Below are positions 8,435 to 21,618 of a stretch of 64,000 bases of DNA, one piece after another (the first letter of the stretch is position 1; every line of letters starts with the position of its first letter). The position numbers and the translations under genes were made by a program. The stretch comes from Acutalibacteraceae bacterium. GTDB lineage: Bacteria > Bacillota > Clostridia > Christensenellales > CAG-138. The stretch lies in the NCBI GenBank assembly GCA_963640685.1, contig CAVIAA010000002.1, forward strand, positions 9,079 through 73,078, written 5' to 3'. Below the pieces are notes generated by a model. That model worked only from the letters and a program-made list of their open reading frames with translations. It did not search any database and was not told the DNA's origin.

Positions 8435-9034
8435 ATGTACGCATACATAAAGGGCATAGTTGCCGAAAAAGGCATAGACAGGGCGGTGATAGAGGCTGCA
8501 GGGGTCGGCTATGAGCTTCTCTGCCCGGACAGCACGCTAAGGGAGATTGCAGCCGGCAGGGAGGCAAAGCTCTTTACGCACTTTAACGTTTCGCAGGACG
8601 GCGTAGCGCTCTACGGCTTTTATACGCCGGAGGAGCGGGCGATGTTCCGCAGGCTGATAGCCGTAAACCGCGTAGGACCCAAGCTGGCGCTCGGCATACT
8701 GAGCAGGCTCAGCCCGAACGACATAGCGATGGCCATAGTAACGGAGAACGCCGCGGCTTTCGATAAAATACCCGGCCTCGGCAAAAAGACCGCCGCAAGG
8801 CTGCTGCTGGAGCTGAAGGAGAAGGTATCCGAGAGCGACATGGTATCCGCCGGGCGGGGGGCGATTACCGCGGGCAACACCGATATGCGCGCGGAGGCAA
8901 TAGCCGCCCTGGTCGCCCTTGGCTATGACGGGGTGAGCGCCGGGCGCGCGGTCGCCGCCGTAGGCGAGTGCGGCAGGGTCGAGGATATGATAACCGGCGC
9001 GCTGAGGGAGATGGCAAAAAGGAGCGGCATTTAA
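8435..9034 (+). CDS. ruvA: Holliday junction branch migration complex subunit RuvA
   Basis: MYAYIKGIVAEK...GVGYELLC and the HhH region IPGLGKKTAARLLLELK. Confidence 0.95.
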   Translation: MYAYIKGIVAEKGIDRAVIEAAGVGYELLCPDSTLREIAAGREAKLFTHFNVSQDGVALYGFYTPEERAMFRRLIAVNRVGPKLALGILSRLSPNDIAMAIVTENAAAFDKIPGLGKKTAARLLLELKEKVSESDMVSAGRGAITAGNTDMRAEAIAALVALGYDGVSAGRAVAAVGECGRVEDMITGALREMAKRSGI

Positions 9035-10060
9035 ATGGACGAAAGACTTATAACCTCCTCTATGACGTTGGAGGACGAGCAGATAGAGTACAGTCTGCGC
9101 CCGCGCTTTTTGAATGAGTACATAGGCCAGACCAACGTAAAGGAGCATATGCGCATATACATAGAAGCGGCAAAGCACAGAGGAGAACCGCTGGATCATG
9201 CGCTGTTCTACGGCCCGCCGGGCCTTGGCAAAACGACCCTCGCTGCAATAGTTGCAAACGAGATGGGCGGCAACCTCAGGGTGACCTCCGGCCCCGCAAT
9301 ATCGCACGCCGGGGATCTTGCGGCGATAATAACCAACCTTGCTCCCGGGGACGTGCTGTTCATAGACGAGATACACAGACTCAACGCCAGCGTTGAGGAG
9401 GTGCTGTATCCGGCTATGGAGGATTACGCGATAGATATAATAATCGGCAAGGGACCCTCTGCCCATTCGGTGCGGATAGACCTTCCGAAGTTCACACTGA
9501 TAGGGGCGACGACGCGAATGGGGCTGCTTACCTCGCCGCTGAGGGACAGGTTCGGCATAAAGGAGCAGCTTGAGCTGTATGGCCCGGAGGATCTTAGGGA
9601 AATAATACAGCGCAGCGCGGATATACTTAACGTTAGGATAGACGACGACGGAGCGCTGGAGATAGCCTCCCGTTCAAGGGGAACACCGCGAATAGTCAAC
9701 CGGCTGCTGAAGCGGGTCAGGGATTACGCACAGGTGCGCGGAAACGGCGAAATAGACCTTGAAACGGCACGAGCCGGGCTGGATATGCTCTCGATAGACG
9801 AGGTGGGGCTGGATGCAGTGGACAGGCGTATGCTGACCACGATGATAGAGAAGTTCGGCGGGAGGCCGGTCGGGCTGGATACCATAGCCGCGGCGACCGG
9901 AGATGATGCAACCACGATAGAGGATGTATACGAGCCGTACCTGATACAGCTTGGGTTTATCGCAAGGACGCCGAGGGGCCGCGTGGTAATGCCGAGAGGG
10001 TATCAGCATATGGGCTACGCACCGCCTGCGGAGAGCGGGCAGCAGAAGATGAGCTTTTAA
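9035..10060 (+). CDS. ruvB: Holliday junction DNA helicase RuvB
   Basis: [12 protein letters not shown], Walker [12 protein letters not shown], Walker [10 protein letters not shown]. The start abuts the ruvA stop. Confidence 0.97.
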
Positions 10061-16443: not shown

Positions 16444-16957
16444 GCTGATAGCGGCGGCAGCAGCTTGCCTGCTGCTCTCGGGCTGCGTAGATACCGGTGC
16501 GAGGATAGACCCTTCTATTACGATACCGCCGGAGCCTACCGCTGTGCCGGAGGCAACGCCGGAGCCAACGCCAACGCCTGTGCCGATAGAGGAGATGGCC
16601 GACCTGAGCAGCGCATACGACAAAAACGGTGCGTTGATAGACGGGGAAGATCACTTTCAGCAGTATATCTCATTTAGAAATATTCAAGTGTACGAGCAGT
16701 GCGGCAGTACCTTTATGGACGCGATAGCGGTGAACGACTACCCGGATACGCTGGTGTGCGCGCTTAATATAGCCTTTTTGGATGAAGACGGAGAGACCGT
16801 TGTGACCGGCCGCGTGCAAACGAGGGACGGACAGTATGTGCTGCGGCTGGCTAACGGCGAAAATACGCTGTTTGCCCAGATAGATACAGATATGACGCTG
16901 ACTGATAAGGAATTCAGGCTTGAGTTCAGCCCGGAGCTGAACGTTTTGCCGGAATGA
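16424..16957 (+). CDS. Lipoprotein of unknown function
   Basis: Signal peptide plus lipobox LLLSGC, then a Pro/Thr/Glu linker. Overlaps the pncB 3' end by 20 nt. Confidence 0.6.
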   Translation: MSRRIAKLIAAAAACLLLSGCVDTGARIDPSITIPPEPTAVPEATPEPTPTPVPIEEMADLSSAYDKNGALIDGEDHFQQYISFRNIQVYEQCGSTFMDAIAVNDYPDTLVCALNIAFLDEDGETVVTGRVQTRDGQYVLRLANGENTLFAQIDTDMTLTDKEFRLEFSPELNVLPE

Positions 16958-17247
16958 CGGAAAGAGGACTGATGGATTACAAAAAAAGCCACAAAATACT
17001 GTGGATATGCCTTGTAGGGGCGCTTGTGCTCTCAATAGTTAACTGCGTGCTCGCGTATATAAACGAGAGCGCTGCCATATTCAGCATAGCCGTTGCCGTG
17101 CTCATAGCGGGGGGCGGGATAGTGCAGGCCATAAGGTTTTTCCGCTGCCCATACTGCGGCTGCAACCTTTACCTCTGGGGGCAGGGGCGTATGCCGGAGT
17201 TCTGCCCGGAGTGCGGCGGAAGGCTGAAGCAGCCCAAGGCGGAGTGA
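16954..17247 (+). CDS. Small two-TM membrane protein with C-terminal zinc-ribbon (CPYC...CPEC)
   Basis: 97 aa with two hydrophobic helices, then CPYCGCNLYLWGQGRMPEFCPECGG. ATGA overlap with the upstream lipoprotein gene. Confidence 0.55.
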   Translation: MTERGLMDYKKSHKILWICLVGALVLSIVNCVLAYINESAAIFSIAVAVLIAGGGIVQAIRFFRCPYCGCNLYLWGQGRMPEFCPECGGRLKQPKAE

Positions 17248-17275
17248 AAAGCCGAGAAGCGATGCTCTAAAGCCA

Positions 17276-17304
17276 TTGACACGGAAAATATCATTTGATA
17301 TAGT
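17276..17304 (+). promoter_or_regulatory. Consensus sigma-A promoter for the SCIFF precursor gene
   Basis: TTGACA (17276-17281), 17-nt spacer, TATAGT (17299-17304). Confidence 0.7.
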
Positions 17305-17352
17305 ATCTTAGAGCAGTAGTAAACCTAAACCTTACAGAATGGAGATAAAGCA

Positions 17353-17499
17353 ATGGAAAGAATCAAGACTATCGTTACCCGCGACCTGTGTGAGAGCGCC
17401 AAGAACGGCGGCTGCGGCGAGTGCCAGACCTCTTGCCAGTCCGCCTGCAAGACGAGCTGCGGCGTGGCCAACCAGAAGTGCGAGAATAAGAATAACTAA
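17353..17499 (+). CDS. SCIFF (six-cysteines-in-forty-five) ranthipeptide precursor peptide
   Basis: A 48-codon ORF that is not in the supplied track: MERIKTIVTRDLCESAKNGGCGECQTSCQSACKTSCGVANQKCENKNN. The GGCGECQTSCQSACKTSC core is the SCIFF family signature. RBS GGAGA lies 7 nt upstream, and the cognate radical SAM gene follows directly. Confidence 0.9.
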   Translation: MERIKTIVTRDLCESAKNGGCGECQTSCQSACKTSCGVANQKCENKNN

Positions 17500-17515
17500 A
17501 ATCGGCAGATAAGTT

Positions 17516-17544
17516 TGCCGCCTGTGCTCAGGCGGCAGTTTTTA
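17516..17544 (+). terminator. Intrinsic terminator/attenuator between precursor and maturase genes
   Basis: 9-bp GC-rich stem TGCCGCCTG (17516-17524) / CAGGCGGCA (17529-17537), 4-nt loop, then GTTTTTA. The maturase RBS AGGAG is at 17551. Confidence 0.7.
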
Positions 17545-17562
17545 TGTATAAGGAGATACAGA

Positions 17563-18939
17563 ATGGTTCATCAGTACAAGCTCAACGGTTATAACATAGT
17601 GCTGGATTCCTGCTCGGGCTCTATCCACTCGGTGGATGATGTGGCGTATGACGTAATAGCCATGTTTGAGGAGCACAGCTCGGAGGAGATCGCAGCGGCG
17701 ATATGCGACAAATATTCAGACCGGGACGACGTTACCCATGATGAAGTCTTAGCCTGCGTTGAGGATGTACGCGCCCTCAGGGATGCGGGCAAGCTGTTCA
17801 CGCCGGATACATTTTCAGAGCTTGCAGGAACATTCAAGGCGCGCTCCGGCAACGTCATAAAGGCGCTTTGCCTGCACGTTGCCCATACCTGCAACCTGAA
17901 CTGCGCCTATTGCTTTGCAAGCCAGGGCAAGTATCACGGTGAGCGTGCGCTGATGAGCCTTGAGGTCGGCAAGCGTGCGCTGGATTTTCTGATGGAAAAC
18001 TCCGGCAGCAGGAGAAACCTCGAAGTTGACTTCTTCGGCGGCGAGCCGCTGATGAACTGGGACGTAGTCAAGGAGCTCGTGAAATACGCAAGGAGCGTTG
18101 AAAAGGAGCGGGGCAAGAACTTCCGCTTTACGCTGACCACAAACGGGATGCTCATAGACGACGACGTTATAGATTTTGCGAACAAGGAAATGAGCAACGT
18201 CGTGCTTTCGTTGGATGGCCGCAAGGAGATAAACGATGCAACGCGGGTGGATTATGCGGGCAACGGCAGCTATGATCGCATAGTGCCAAAGTTTAAGCGG
18301 CTGGTGGAGGCTCGCGGCGGCAAGAATTATTATATGCGTGGCACGTTTACCCATGCCAATCCGGATTTCACAAACGATGTTTTCCATATGGCGGAGCTGG
18401 GCTTTACCGAGCTTAGTATGGAGCCTGTGATCTGCGCGCCGAGCGATCCCGCTGCCTTGACGACGGATGACCTTGAAACGGTAAAGGAGCAGTATGAGAT
18501 ACTCGCGCTGGATATGCTGCGGCGCAAAAAAGAGGGCAGGCCGATAACCTTCTATCACTATATGCTGGATCTTACCGGCGGCCCCTGCGTATATAAAAGG
18601 ATATCGGGCTGCGGCTCGGGTACCGAGTACATGGCGGTTACCCCTTGGGGCGATCTTTACCCCTGCCATCAGTTTGTCGGCGAGGAGAGCCTTAAGCTGG
18701 GGGATATATGGCACGGCGTTACCAACGAAGCGGTGCGAGATGAGTTCCGCTCCTGCAATGCCTATGCAAGAAAAGAGTGCGATAATTGCTGGGCGAGGCT
18801 GTATTGCTCCGGCGGCTGCGCGGCCAACGCCTACCACGCAACGGACAGCATACGCGGTATATACGAGGCGGGCTGCGAGCTTTTTAAAAAGCGCATAGAG
18901 TGTGCGATAATGATGAAGATCACGGAAGAAGATATGTGA
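17563..18939 (+). CDS. Radical SAM/SPASM thioether cross-link-forming SCIFF peptide maturase
   Basis: CNLNCAYC (CX3CX2C) radical SAM cluster, plus C-terminal SPASM cysteines (CGSGTEYMAVTPWGDLYPC, CDNCWARLYCSGGCAANA). N-terminus MVHQYKLNGYNIVLDSCSGSIHSVD is typical of SCIFF maturases. ATG at 17563 follows AGGAG. Confidence 0.9.
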   Translation: MVHQYKLNGYNIVLDSCSGSIHSVDDVAYDVIAMFEEHSSEEIAAAICDKYSDRDDVTHDEVLACVEDVRALRDAGKLFTPDTFSELAGTFKARSGNVIKALCLHVAHTCNLNCAYCFASQGKYHGERALMSLEVGKRALDFLMENSGSRRNLEVDFFGGEPLMNWDVVKELVKYARSVEKERGKNFRFTLTTNGMLIDDDVIDFANKEMSNVVLSLDGRKEINDATRVDYAGNGSYDRIVPKFKRLVEARGGKNYYMRGTFTHANPDFTNDVFHMAELGFTELSMEPVICAPSDPAALTTDDLETVKEQYEILALDMLRRKKEGRPITFYHYMLDLTGGPCVYKRISGCGSGTEYMAVTPWGDLYPCHQFVGEESLKLGDIWHGVTNEAVRDEFRSCNAYARKECDNCWARLYCSGGCAANAYHATDSIRGIYEAGCELFKKRIECAIMMKITEEDM

Positions 18940-20273
18940 TGGATACGCCGATACTGGATTTCGTAAGAAAATACGGCGACAGCGGCTTTACTCGGTTCCA
19001 TATGCCGGGGCACAAGGGCAGTGGAGAAATGGGCTGCGAAAGGTGGGACGTTACCGAAATACACGGCGCGGATTCGCTGTATGAGGCGGAGGGCATAATC
19101 GCAAAAAGCGAGGAAAACGCGGCGAGGCTTTTCGGCTCCCGGCGGACATGCTATTCTACCGAGGGCTCAAGCCAGTGCATAAGGGCGATGCTCTACCTTG
19201 CCCTGAGCAGCAGGCCGAAGGGCAGCTCAAGGAGGGTCATAACGGCGCGCAACGTACACAGGAGCTTCGTATACGCTGCGGCATTGCTGGATATCGAGCC
19301 GGTTTGGCTTTGGCCGAAAAGCTGCGGTTCGCTCTGTACCTGCCGCATAACGGCAGAGGAGCTGGAAAAGGCCATCGCATCGGAGAAGGAACTGCCCGCG
19401 GCTGTGTATATTACGAGCCCGGATTATCTGGGCGAAACGGCGGATATTGCCGCCATGGCCGATGCCTGCCATAAAAACGGAACGCTGCTGATCGTGGATA
19501 ATGCACACGGCGCGTATCTTAAATTTCTGCCGGAATCCGCTCACCCGCTCGACCTTGGCGCGGATATGTGCTGCGACTCGGCGCACAAAACGCTGCCTGT
19601 GCTGACCGGCGGGGCGTATCTGCACATAAGCAGCGGCTTGAATGAGAAATATGCGGAGCAGGCCAAGGCGGCGCTGGCGCTGTTTGGCTCAACCAGCCCA
19701 TCTTACCTTATATTAGCATCATTGGACGCCTGCAACAGCCTTCTCGCGGGAGAATACCGGAAAAGGCTTGGCGCGTGGGTAAAAGAAATAAACGGCCTTA
19801 AGGAACGGCTGAGAGCTGCCGGCTGGGGAATTGCCGAAAGCGACCCGTTGCGCTTGGTAATAAAGGCGACGAAGCGGCACAGCGGCACGGCGATAGCGGC
19901 CATGCTCAGAGCTAACTGCATCGAGTGCGAATATGCAGACTCTGATTTTGCGGTGCTTATGACTACGCCTGATAATACGGCAGAGGATATAAAAAGGCTG
20001 GAGGCGGCGCTCGGGCGCTGCGCTGAAGCCGTGGCCAAACAGGTGCCGCTGCCGCAGGTAAGGGCAGAGCAGGTTGTTTCGGTGAGGGAGGCCTTTTTCC
20101 TGCCGCATGAAAAAATACCGATAAACAAAGCGGAGGGCCGGATATGCGGGGCGCCCGCTGTATCCTGCCCTCCGGCAATACCCATCGCGGTATCCGGCGA
20201 AAGGATAGGCCGCGAAGCAATAGCGCTGTTTAAACGGTATGGAATAAAAAGTGTTGAGGTCGTCAAGCCTTAA
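18939..20273 (+). CDS. Orn/Lys/Arg decarboxylase-family PLP-dependent enzyme (YaaO-like)
   Basis: MDTPILDFVRKYGDSGFTRFHMPGHKG, a SAHKTLP lysine motif region, and a C-terminal OKR_DC_1_C-like domain. The ATG overlaps the maturase TGA (ATGTGATGG). Confidence 0.8.
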   Translation: MDTPILDFVRKYGDSGFTRFHMPGHKGSGEMGCERWDVTEIHGADSLYEAEGIIAKSEENAARLFGSRRTCYSTEGSSQCIRAMLYLALSSRPKGSSRRVITARNVHRSFVYAAALLDIEPVWLWPKSCGSLCTCRITAEELEKAIASEKELPAAVYITSPDYLGETADIAAMADACHKNGTLLIVDNAHGAYLKFLPESAHPLDLGADMCCDSAHKTLPVLTGGAYLHISSGLNEKYAEQAKAALALFGSTSPSYLILASLDACNSLLAGEYRKRLGAWVKEINGLKERLRAAGWGIAESDPLRLVIKATKRHSGTAIAAMLRANCIECEYADSDFAVLMTTPDNTAEDIKRLEAALGRCAEAVAKQVPLPQVRAEQVVSVREAFFLPHEKIPINKAEGRICGAPAVSCPPAIPIAVSGERIGREAIALFKRYGIKSVEVVKP

Positions 20274-21618
20274 CAGGCTTGGCGGCGTGGATAGCGAGGC
20301 CTATTGCAAGCCCCAAAATGGCGGGCAGCAGCCAGCTGAGGCCGAGCTGAGCGAGCGGCAGGTGAAGGGTTATTGCGTTTACGGCATCCGTCAGCCTGAG
20401 TGCATCCAGCAGGCCGGAGGGAAGGCTGCGCACCAGATCGACCACGGCAAAGGGAAGGGTGAAGCCAATCGTCCAGCGGAACACCCGCCTGTCATAGCCA
20501 AAGAACCGCCCGAAGAGGGACAGCAGTATTATCGCTACCGCAAGGGGATACAGGAACATCAGCACAGGTATTGCGTAGGCAATTATCGCGCTAAGGCCAA
20601 CGTTCGCAAACAGGAAAGACGCGAAGCTGAATATTATCGCCCAAAGCTTGTAGTCAGGCCCATTCGGGAAGAGGGCGGAGAAGGTCTCGGCGCAGCTTGT
20701 AATAAGCCCTATCGCGGTCTTCAAGCAGGCAAGCGTAACGGTTATCGCCATTATTATGAGGCCGAGCCTGCCAAGAAAATGCTCCGCCGTATATGCAAGG
20801 GCGGTGCCGCCGTTGTCCGCAGCCTCCATTATGTTGCGGCTATCTGCGCCAACGAGGGTCACAAGCAGATATATGACCGCCATGAGCAGGCAACTGAATA
20901 TGCCAGAGCGGACGGTATTAGTGGCAATGTCCTCGGGTTCGTTTATCCCGAGACCCTTTATGACGTTAATTACGACTATGCCGAAGGCAAGGCTCGCCAG
21001 CGCGTCCATCGTATTGTAGCCCTCAAGAAAGCCGGTGAAGAAGGGCTGCGTTGCGTATGCACCCAGCGGTTCGATCTCGGAAATGCTTCCCTTTGAGCTG
21101 AACAGCACAACGACCGTGAGTATGCCCAAGAAGAGCAGGAAGAAGGGGTTGAGCAGCTTGCCTATCCAGACGAGTATTTTGCCGGGGCGGAGAACAAAGA
21201 ACAGCGCCGCAGCAAAGAACAGCAGCGAGAATATGAAAAGATAAATGCGGCTATCCGAAGGGAGAAGCTGTTCAAGGCCGACAGTGTAGGACACCGTTGC
21301 GCAGCGGGGAATGGCAAAGAAGGGGCCTATCGTAAGGTACAGCAGGCAGGTGAAGAACAGGCCGTATGGGCGGCTTACTCTGCTGCTGAGGTCGTATAGC
21401 CCGGTGCTGCGGCTTATGCCGAGGGCGGCCACGCCGAGCAGCGGAAGGCCAACGCCGGTAACTATAAAGCCTATGAGTGCGGGCCAGAGGTTGTAGCCGG
21501 CCTGCTGCCCCATGAACACGGGAAATATGAGGTTACCCGCGCCGAAGAACATTCCGAAGAGCATACTGGCAACGTAAACACTCTCCTTAAAGCTTAGCCT
21601 TTTCTTCATTTTTTTCAT
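20263..21618 (-). CDS. brnQ: Branched-chain amino acid transport system II carrier protein
   Basis: FGMFFGAGNLIFPVFMGQQAG N-terminal motif and a 12-TM LIVCS-family profile. Confidence 0.92.
   Translation of the reverse strand: MKKMKKRLSFKESVYVASMLFGMFFGAGNLIFPVFMGQQAGYNLWPALIGFIVTGVGLPLLGVAALGISRSTGLYDLSSRVSRPYGLFFTCLLYLTIGPFFAIPRCATVSYTVGLEQLLPSDSRIYLFIFSLLFFAAALFFVLRPGKILVWIGKLLNPFFLLFLGILTVVVLFSSKGSISEIEPLGAYATQPFFTGFLEGYNTMDALASLAFGIVVINVIKGLGINEPEDIATNTVRSGIFSCLLMAVIYLLVTLVGADSRNIMEAADNGGTALAYTAEHFLGRLGLIIMAITVTLACLKTAIGLITSCAETFSALFPNGPDYKLWAIIFSFASFLFANVGLSAIIAYAIPVLMFLYPLAVAIILLSLFGRFFGYDRRVFRWTIGFTLPFAVVDLVRSLPSGLLDALRLTDAVNAITLHLPLAQLGLSWLLPAILGLAIGLAIHAAKPVKA

Follow-up and report, generated by a model that had tools for sequence, protein, structure and literature searches.

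What does a gene of 48 codons, lying just upstream of a gene for a radical S-adenosylmethionine (SAM) enzyme in an Acutalibacteraceae bacterium, encode, which residue of its product is cross-linked, and what is the finished peptide for? We addressed these questions for a 64,000-nt stretch of contig CAVIAA010000002.1 (assembly GCA_963640685.1; positions 9,079 to 73,078, forward strand), hereafter the window, in which the gene pair scfA-scfB occupies 17276-18939; all coordinates are positions in the window. Judging from sequence comparison, this region is very probably a functional scfA-scfB operon that makes a ranthipeptide of the SCIFF family, of a subtype with glycine at residue 37 (Gly37), by the mechanism proposed below. 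The comparisons show that the locus belongs to the family, that its genes stand in the family's order, that promoter, terminator and a third gene are conserved in related loci, and that the catalytic motifs are kept. The locus is laid out as follows.

17276..17304, + strand: putative sigma-70-type promoter of scfA, with TTGACA at 17276-17281, a 17-nt spacer and TATAGT at 17299-17304; promoter function is presumed.
17341..17345, + strand: ribosome-binding site (RBS) of scfA, GGAGA, 7 nt 5' of the ATG at 17353, as read from the sequence.
17353..17499, + strand: scfA, a 48-aa SCIFF ranthipeptide precursor (TIGR03973, PF13165).
17515..17544, + strand: predicted intrinsic terminator or attenuator, with a 10-bp G+C-rich stem, a 4-nt loop and TTTTT.
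17550..17556, + strand: RBS of scfB, AAGGAGA, 6 nt 5' of the ATG at 17563, as read from the sequence.
17563..18939, + strand: scfB, a 458-aa radical SAM/SPASM thioether-forming SCIFF maturase (TIGR03974, CteB alignment).
18939..20273, + strand: third gene of the unit, for a 444-aa pyridoxal phosphate (PLP)-dependent enzyme assigned to the Orn/Lys/Arg decarboxylase family (PF01276); the stop codon of scfB and the ATG of this gene share nucleotides (TGATG).

The 48-aa open reading frame (ORF) at 17353-17499 translates exactly as quoted in the initial annotation of this DNA (MERIKTIVTRDLCESAKNGGCGECQTSCQSACKTSCGVANQKCENKNN), and the assignment to SCIFF made there is upheld by searches with hidden Markov models. 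The scfA peptide scores 78 bits against TIGR03973 (cut-off 50) and 80.9 bits against PF13165 (cut-off 27), at E ~1e-22, and ScfB scores 753 bits against the TIGR03974 equivalog (cut-off 425). ScfA carries seven cysteines, at positions 13, 21, 24, 28, 32, 36 and 43, of which Cys21 to Cys43 fit the SCIFF spacing C-x2-C-x3-C-x3-C-x3-C-x6-C (six cysteines in about 45 residues). Its leader, bounded as defined for CteA (PMC8326336), comprises residues 1-18 and includes Cys13, while the core starts GGCGECQTSCQSACKTSC. A further criterion applied to SCIFF precursors is a position within 500 bp of a ScfB maturase gene (PMC5300114); scfA lies within this distance, its stop codon (17499) and the scfB ATG (17563) being 63 nt apart. 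Of 80 related loci, 76 have the same precursor ORF 5' of scfB. The ScfA peptide matches 5,427 database clusters, and peptides 94% identical to it already bear the NCBI label ‘six-cysteine ranthipeptide SCIFF’ (Eubacteriales and Oscillospiraceae metagenome-assembled genomes, MAGs). With its 48 aa the product is too short for the ORF lister, whose default is 60 aa, and SCIFF genes have been described as easily overlooked in annotation (PMC5300114). By these comparisons it is essentially certain that the locus is a routine copy of a described and curated family. On its own the cassette matters little, since annotation pipelines already name both SCIFF and ScfB from curated equivalog models; the Gly37 subtype, on the other hand, makes two questions about SCIFFs directly testable, namely the identity of the acceptor residue and the physiological function.

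The counts given below come from samples of different reach. The clade set comprises the best 80 scfB loci, taken from one-genome-per-species representatives, with a best match 84% identical; all are from gut or rumen MAGs or isolates, most of them labeled Oscillospiraceae, Oscillibacter, Dysosmobacter or Faecousia, with Clostridiales and Lachnospiraceae as looser labels. These relatives suggest an uncultured gut bacterium of the Oscillospiraceae type as the source; an exact look-up of the ScfB sequence in the assembly index gave no match. Protein searches with ScfA returned the best-scoring matches, all of the window’s own subtype, and hence give frequencies for that subtype rather than for the family. 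A core-selected metagenome sample of 118 copies was obtained with a degenerate-DNA scan anchored on the invariant core; 89 of these copies have threonine at residue 37 (Thr37) and 29 have Gly37 (29/118, about a quarter). Some ORFs are atypical. Five predicted proteins from the database (P0001, P0121, P0122, P0227 and P0241) contain two SCIFF-like stretches each, e.g., P0001 with GGCGECQTSCQTINKQNLKESAVKGGCGEGQASCQSACKTSCGIANQKC; precursors that were fused or duplicated, or chimeric assemblies, could account for them. Three Thr37-type ORFs from metagenomes (L135, L177 and L194) have no ScfB homologue within 900 nt despite more than 2.5 kb of downstream sequence; these may be orphan precursors or belong to loci with another gene order.

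The enzyme encoded by scfB was initially taken for a radical SAM/SPASM protein of the ranthipeptide type because of a CNLNCAYC motif and C-terminal cysteine clusters. Both are present, in a protein that exceeds the TIGR03974 cut-off and stays below that of NF040492, the ‘not ScfB’ orphan exception model (548 vs. 855). The alignment of ScfB with CteB (PDB 5WGG, E ~1e-164) spans the entire protein, and the cysteines of the radical SAM motif (Cys110, 114 and 117) as well as SPASM Cys342, 350, 368, 406, 409, 415, 419, 438 and 447 all align with CteB cysteines; residues 1-100 align with the region of CteB that contains its RRE, the recognition element of RiPP pathways (RiPPs being peptides made by ribosomes and modified after translation). 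A start of scfB at TTG-17515 was rejected, as this codon is inside the hairpin that separates the two genes and both the TIGR03974 and the CteB alignments begin at residue 1-2 when counted from the ATG at 17563. The longest ORF, which opens at TTG-17515, is an annotation trap that adds 16 spurious residues and hides the terminator.

Homology to CteB leads us to infer a thioether from a Cys sulfur to the beta or gamma carbon of the acceptor. In the mechanism that we propose, ScfB would bind the precursor leader via its N-terminal RRE-like domain. SAM would be cleaved at the [4Fe-4S] cluster held by Cys110/114/117, with abstraction of a hydrogen from the acceptor side chain in the core, and the acceptor carbon would be joined to a Cys sulfur held at the SPASM auxiliary cluster, giving a thioether that probably links Cys32 to Thr34.

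The identity of the acceptor is a point on which results for the characterized systems differ. Two reviews give the same account (PMC8326336, PMC8172795): in vitro, Tte1186 and CteB each made one thioether, between Cys32 and Thr37 (Bruender 2016; Grove 2017), while CteB co-expressed in E. coli joined Cys32 to Thr34 at its gamma carbon (Hudson 2019). The corresponding residues of ScfA are K33-T34-S35-C36-G37, with Gly where the characterized SCIFFs have Thr37, a deviation of more relevance than the extra Cys13. Among close homologues, Gly37 is found in 247 of 248 peptides and Thr34 in all 248. A Cys32-Thr37 link of the kind formed in vitro is therefore impossible in this subtype, i.e., in a quarter of the sampled family. 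We favor Thr34 as the most likely native acceptor, to judge from its retention; the alternative would be a different bond in the Gly37 subtype, and a link to the alpha carbon of Gly37, if made, would yield a sactipeptide-like product. The natural absence of Thr37 with Thr34 kept supplies comparative evidence on the Thr34-vs.-Thr37 dispute, along with a ready-made natural substrate.

Transcription of the locus is predicted to start at a strong sigma-70 promoter (17276-17304) that would serve the 48-codon precursor gene. The TTGACA-17-TATAGT sequence is present where the initial annotation had put it, with 11 of 12 matches to the consensus and an extended -10 TG at 17296-17297, and it recurs in relatives: TTGAC(T/A)-17-TAnnnT with at least 10 of 12 matches occurs 5' of scfA in 48 of 76 related loci, 47 of these 48 with the TG. 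Weak promoter-like matches are no more frequent across the region than might be expected (3 found vs. 2.5 in shuffled sequence), and the site upstream of scfA is much the strongest of the region. The RBS claimed for scfA is likewise there, as GGAGA at 17341-17345. A riboswitch upstream of scfA was considered and rejected, the 5' untranslated region being too short, and an Rfam search of 16800-20400 at a permissive threshold matched no known RNA family.

Between the two genes lies the strong terminator-like hairpin with a T-run that had been noticed from the start, and it proves to be a lasting feature of the clade. Seven of the 10 pairs in the stem-loop at 17515-17538 are G-C, TTTTT follows at 17539-17543, and the 69 nt folded from the scfA-scfB spacer reach -21.8 kcal/mol (z = -3.2 vs. 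shuffles). Of 77 clade loci, 73 have a terminator-like hairpin, which begins a median of 15 nt past the scfA stop; under a fairly strict rule it was also detected in 56 of 80 Thr37-type and 20 of 25 Gly37-type metagenome loci (76/105). RNAalifold applied to 66 related hairpins returned a consensus stem of 11 pairs, 9 of which show compensatory double changes, and the T-run is near-invariant in the same alignment. The element thus has the hallmarks of an intrinsic (Rho-independent) terminator: a G+C-rich stem-loop, a U-run and compensatory changes.

From the end of the terminator to the scfB ATG there are only 18 nt, and a promoter-like site was not found in this interval of the window; expression of scfB should therefore depend on read-through. 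The terminator, 15 nt past the scfA stop, would end most transcripts and leave an abundant short precursor mRNA, and the read-through fraction would carry scfB together with the translationally coupled PLP gene. An excess of precursor mRNA had been anticipated in the initial annotation, and it gains indirect support from the conservation of the hairpin, the covariation of its stem and the lack of room for an scfB promoter. That a leaky terminator sets a high precursor-to-enzyme ratio is, on this comparative evidence, well supported, and a conserved, covarying terminator speaks for a system designed to keep the precursor in fixed excess over the enzyme. The intergenic terminator of SCIFF loci seems not to have been singled out in the literature that we searched.

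Several details weigh against the proposed mechanism. The PqqD model PF05402 reaches 22.3 bits on the N-terminus of ScfB, just under its cut-off of 23.4. The T-run of the window copy is short, five T followed by A, and the upstream A-tract of most relatives is absent from it; because of these two features, termination could be weak or strong. The assignment of the acceptor leans on the Thr34/Thr37 discrepancy in the literature. Finally, the invariance of Thr34 was measured among close relatives of the query only, the pattern used for the metagenome scan having Thr34 fixed.

A seventh cysteine, Cys13, had been singled out in the initial annotation as an extra of this copy. It is indeed present and lies in the leader, but it is a trait of the clade rather than special to this copy, being found in 100 of the 115 nearest 90%-identity clusters and in 89 of 131 representatives at 50% identity. 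Among full-length precursors from metagenomes, a leader cysteine occurs in 8 of 29 Gly37-type and 4 of 80 Thr37-type peptides. Seven-cysteine peptides make up 16 of 109 in the metagenome sample, some by virtue of an extra C-terminal cysteine. Such a C-terminal seventh cysteine is seen in metagenome loci such as L084, L086, L100, L134 and L140 (...CEKCK, ...CEQCK, ...CEKCLSEK), and in both Thr37 and Gly37 types; seven-cysteine copies have thus arisen by more than one route. In two related loci (L070, 4725-4871; L073, 4709-4855) the leader cysteine is at position 16 (RDLKKSCAAGG) instead of 13, and no PLP gene is adjacent. That Cys13 recurs, and is replaced by Cys16 in these two loci, hints at selection.

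The initial annotation also described the unit as ending with scfB and as free of transporter, protease and immunity genes. The latter part stands. The limit of two genes does not, as the coupled PLP gene follows at 18939. Its product scores 128 bits against PF01276 (cut-off 27), with 2X3L as the nearest structure (E 2e-28). NCBIfam gave the enzyme no specific name, all equivalog models staying under their cut-offs. The structure 2X3L, deposited under the family name alone, comes from Staphylococcus aureus, which would not be expected to carry a SCIFF. The PLP-lysine motif is SAHKT in the window enzyme (Lys217), and 72 of the 77 linked homologues retain SxHKT.

Conservation sets this gene apart from everything else around the pair. 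A homologue follows scfB in 67 of the 75 clade loci that have room for one, about 10% of clade loci being without the gene, and the junction is an overlap in 46 of 70 loci and a gap of at most 25 nt in 20 more. Each of eight more genes that flank the pair in the window is kept in only 0-1 clade loci, for which reason Lgt, nicotinate phosphoribosyltransferase, a lipoprotein, a zinc-ribbon membrane protein, DinB, BrnQ, a proline iminopeptidase-like hydrolase and GalE were dropped as candidate members of the system. Unsupervised clustering of the flanking ORFs in the clade loci gave no further conserved neighbor.

The linkage also follows residue 37. Where loci have room on both sides, the PLP gene adjoins scfAB in 7 of 7 Gly37 and 0 of 24 Thr37 cases, and none of the 89 Thr37 contigs carries a match to the enzyme. 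Two gene orders occur, with the PLP gene either 3' of scfB, as in the window, or 5' of scfA; enzymes encoded in the latter position are 25-34% identical to that of the window and are full-length homologues with the same motifs. From these comparisons the pattern appears stronger than simple inherited synteny, yet it is an association only, and Gly37 and PLP linkage may both simply mark one taxonomic order. Those papers in the literature searched that mention both SCIFF and decarboxylase deal, going by title and abstract, with matters other than this linkage, and a search on related terms likewise gave nothing relevant. Gly37, usually a leader cysteine and a coupled PLP enzyme together mark out a coherent subtype, of which we are aware of no earlier description. 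Its linkage to the enzyme in two gene orders could be tested as a clue to what a peptide near-universal in Clostridia does.

What, then, is the PLP enzyme doing beside scfAB? We lean slightly towards a housekeeping amino-acid decarboxylase (e.g., for polyamine synthesis) that rides on the scfAB transcript, the SCIFF system proper consisting of two genes, as it does elsewhere in Clostridia. The curators of the family state that each SCIFF precursor needs ScfB alone (PMC5300114), and 75% of the sampled SCIFF loci are without a PLP gene, lying between a TIGR04086 protein and SecDF instead. In Thr37-type loci a TIGR04086 membrane protein is encoded 5' in 29 cases and SecDF directly 3' of scfB in 34, with RecJ and Tgt further out. 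The active-site motif of the PLP enzyme is ordinary and intact, as a housekeeping role would have it. On the other hand, hitch-hiking is a poor explanation for linkage that persists across two gene orders and a total turnover of neighbors in more than 60 species-level genomes. A variant in which the PLP gene opens a conserved housekeeping operon was rejected, as nothing 3' of it is conserved.

The idea that the mature product is a secreted quorum-sensing signal, not an intracellular factor as the initial annotation suggested, is possible though on balance unlikely. In its favor, SCIFFs of solventogenic clostridia have been reported to act in quorum sensing (Chen 2020, as cited in PMC8326336 and PMC11169845), and the protein-export genes secDF stand directly 3' of scfB in the 34 Thr37-type loci just mentioned. 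The operon in the window, however, contains no exporter, leader peptidase, receptor kinase or SecDF, and SecDF is absent from all 64 kb of the window. That nearly all Clostridia have SCIFF has served as an argument against an antimicrobial role, though not specifically against signaling (PMC8326336).

A closer tie between enzyme and peptide in the Gly37 subtype seems to us rather unlikely. The PLP enzyme would then either tailor the SCIFF peptide or employ it, once cross-linked, as its small subunit or regulator, in parallel to QhpD, which cross-links a dehydrogenase subunit. The linkage is specific to Gly37 (7/7 vs. 0/24), spans two gene orders and involves divergent enzymes; the gene is the sole conserved neighbor, is translationally coupled to scfB and keeps its catalytic lysine motif; and QhpD is the closest non-RiPP relative of ScfB. 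Against this, the case is one of genomic association alone, about a tenth of clade loci manage without the gene, and the enzyme family is widespread in the absence of SCIFF. We know of no RiPP pathway that includes an enzyme of the Orn/Lys/Arg decarboxylase family. The broader claim that Gly37 SCIFFs form a distinct three-component system, with the PLP enzyme functionally tied to the cross-linked peptide, we consider improbable on present genomic evidence; if true, it would provide the first concrete biochemical partner for SCIFF peptides, which occur throughout the Clostridia.

Although short ORFs and weak promoter-like matches are common in general, there is practically no chance that the small ORF and the hairpin arose fortuitously beside an orphan maturase, given the E-value of ~1e-22, the ORF in 76 of 80 loci and a ScfB score that fails the NF040492 cut-off.

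In canonical Thr37-type loci, Tgt lies 5' and SecDF and RecJ lie 3'. Homologues of TIGR04086, SecDF, RecJ and Tgt were sought within the 64-kb window and none was found. The genes ruvA and ruvB, named by inspection of the sequence and not by a model score, are at 8435-10060, about 7 kb 5' of scfA, conceivably as a remnant of an ancestral neighborhood of the canonical kind. Directly upstream of the scfA promoter, a 97-aa ORF (16954-17247) encodes hydrophobic segments and a zinc-ribbon-like CPYC...CPEC motif; it has no match in Pfam or NCBIfam and is beside scfA in 0 of 71 related loci. At the other end, a gene for a BrnQ-type branched-chain amino-acid transporter (20263-21618, - strand) converges with the PLP gene in an 11-nt overlap (20263-20273), which leaves no room for a terminator of either gene.

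Two SCIFF systems have been characterized biochemically, CteA/CteB (thermocellin) of Clostridium thermocellum and Tte1186a/Tte1186 of Caldanaerobacter subterraneus, and the locus resembles both in having the precursor gene immediately 5' of the maturase gene. ScfA belongs to the same family as CteA and Tte1186a and shares with them the core GGCGECQTSCQSACKTSC...NQxC and six cysteines at identical spacing; it differs in Gly37 and in the extra leader Cys13. The maturase aligns end to end with CteB, and all Fe-S cysteines are kept. The sampled Thr37-type loci, to which CteA and Tte1186a correspond by residue 37, have the TIGR04086/SecDF context in place of the coupled PLP enzyme found here.

Beyond the family, the closest non-RiPP relative of ScfB is QhpD (TIGR03906, 267 bits), which puts Cys-to-Asp/Glu thioethers into a small Cys-rich polypeptide (PMC8326336). 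That polypeptide is the small subunit of quinohemoprotein amine dehydrogenase, and a parallel with the PLP enzyme is only an idea. ScfB is far below the QhpD cut-off (453), dehydrogenase subunits are lacking, and the target is a 48-aa SCIFF peptide instead of QhpC. PapB, the radical SAM/SPASM ranthipeptide maturase that acts on PapA to give freyrasin in Paenibacillus polymyxa, is similarly related (NF047865, 269 bits), but ScfB stays below the PapB cut-off (340), and the six Cys-X3-Asp links of freyrasin have no counterpart in the SCIFF core, which is without such repeats. Lantibiotic and subtilosin operons contain intergenic attenuating terminators between RiPP precursor and modification genes. 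The arrangement at scfA-scfB is alike in that a hairpin with a U-run comes right after the precursor gene and the enzyme genes would rely on read-through, and it differs in that the SCIFF hairpin is here seen to be conserved and covarying family-wide.

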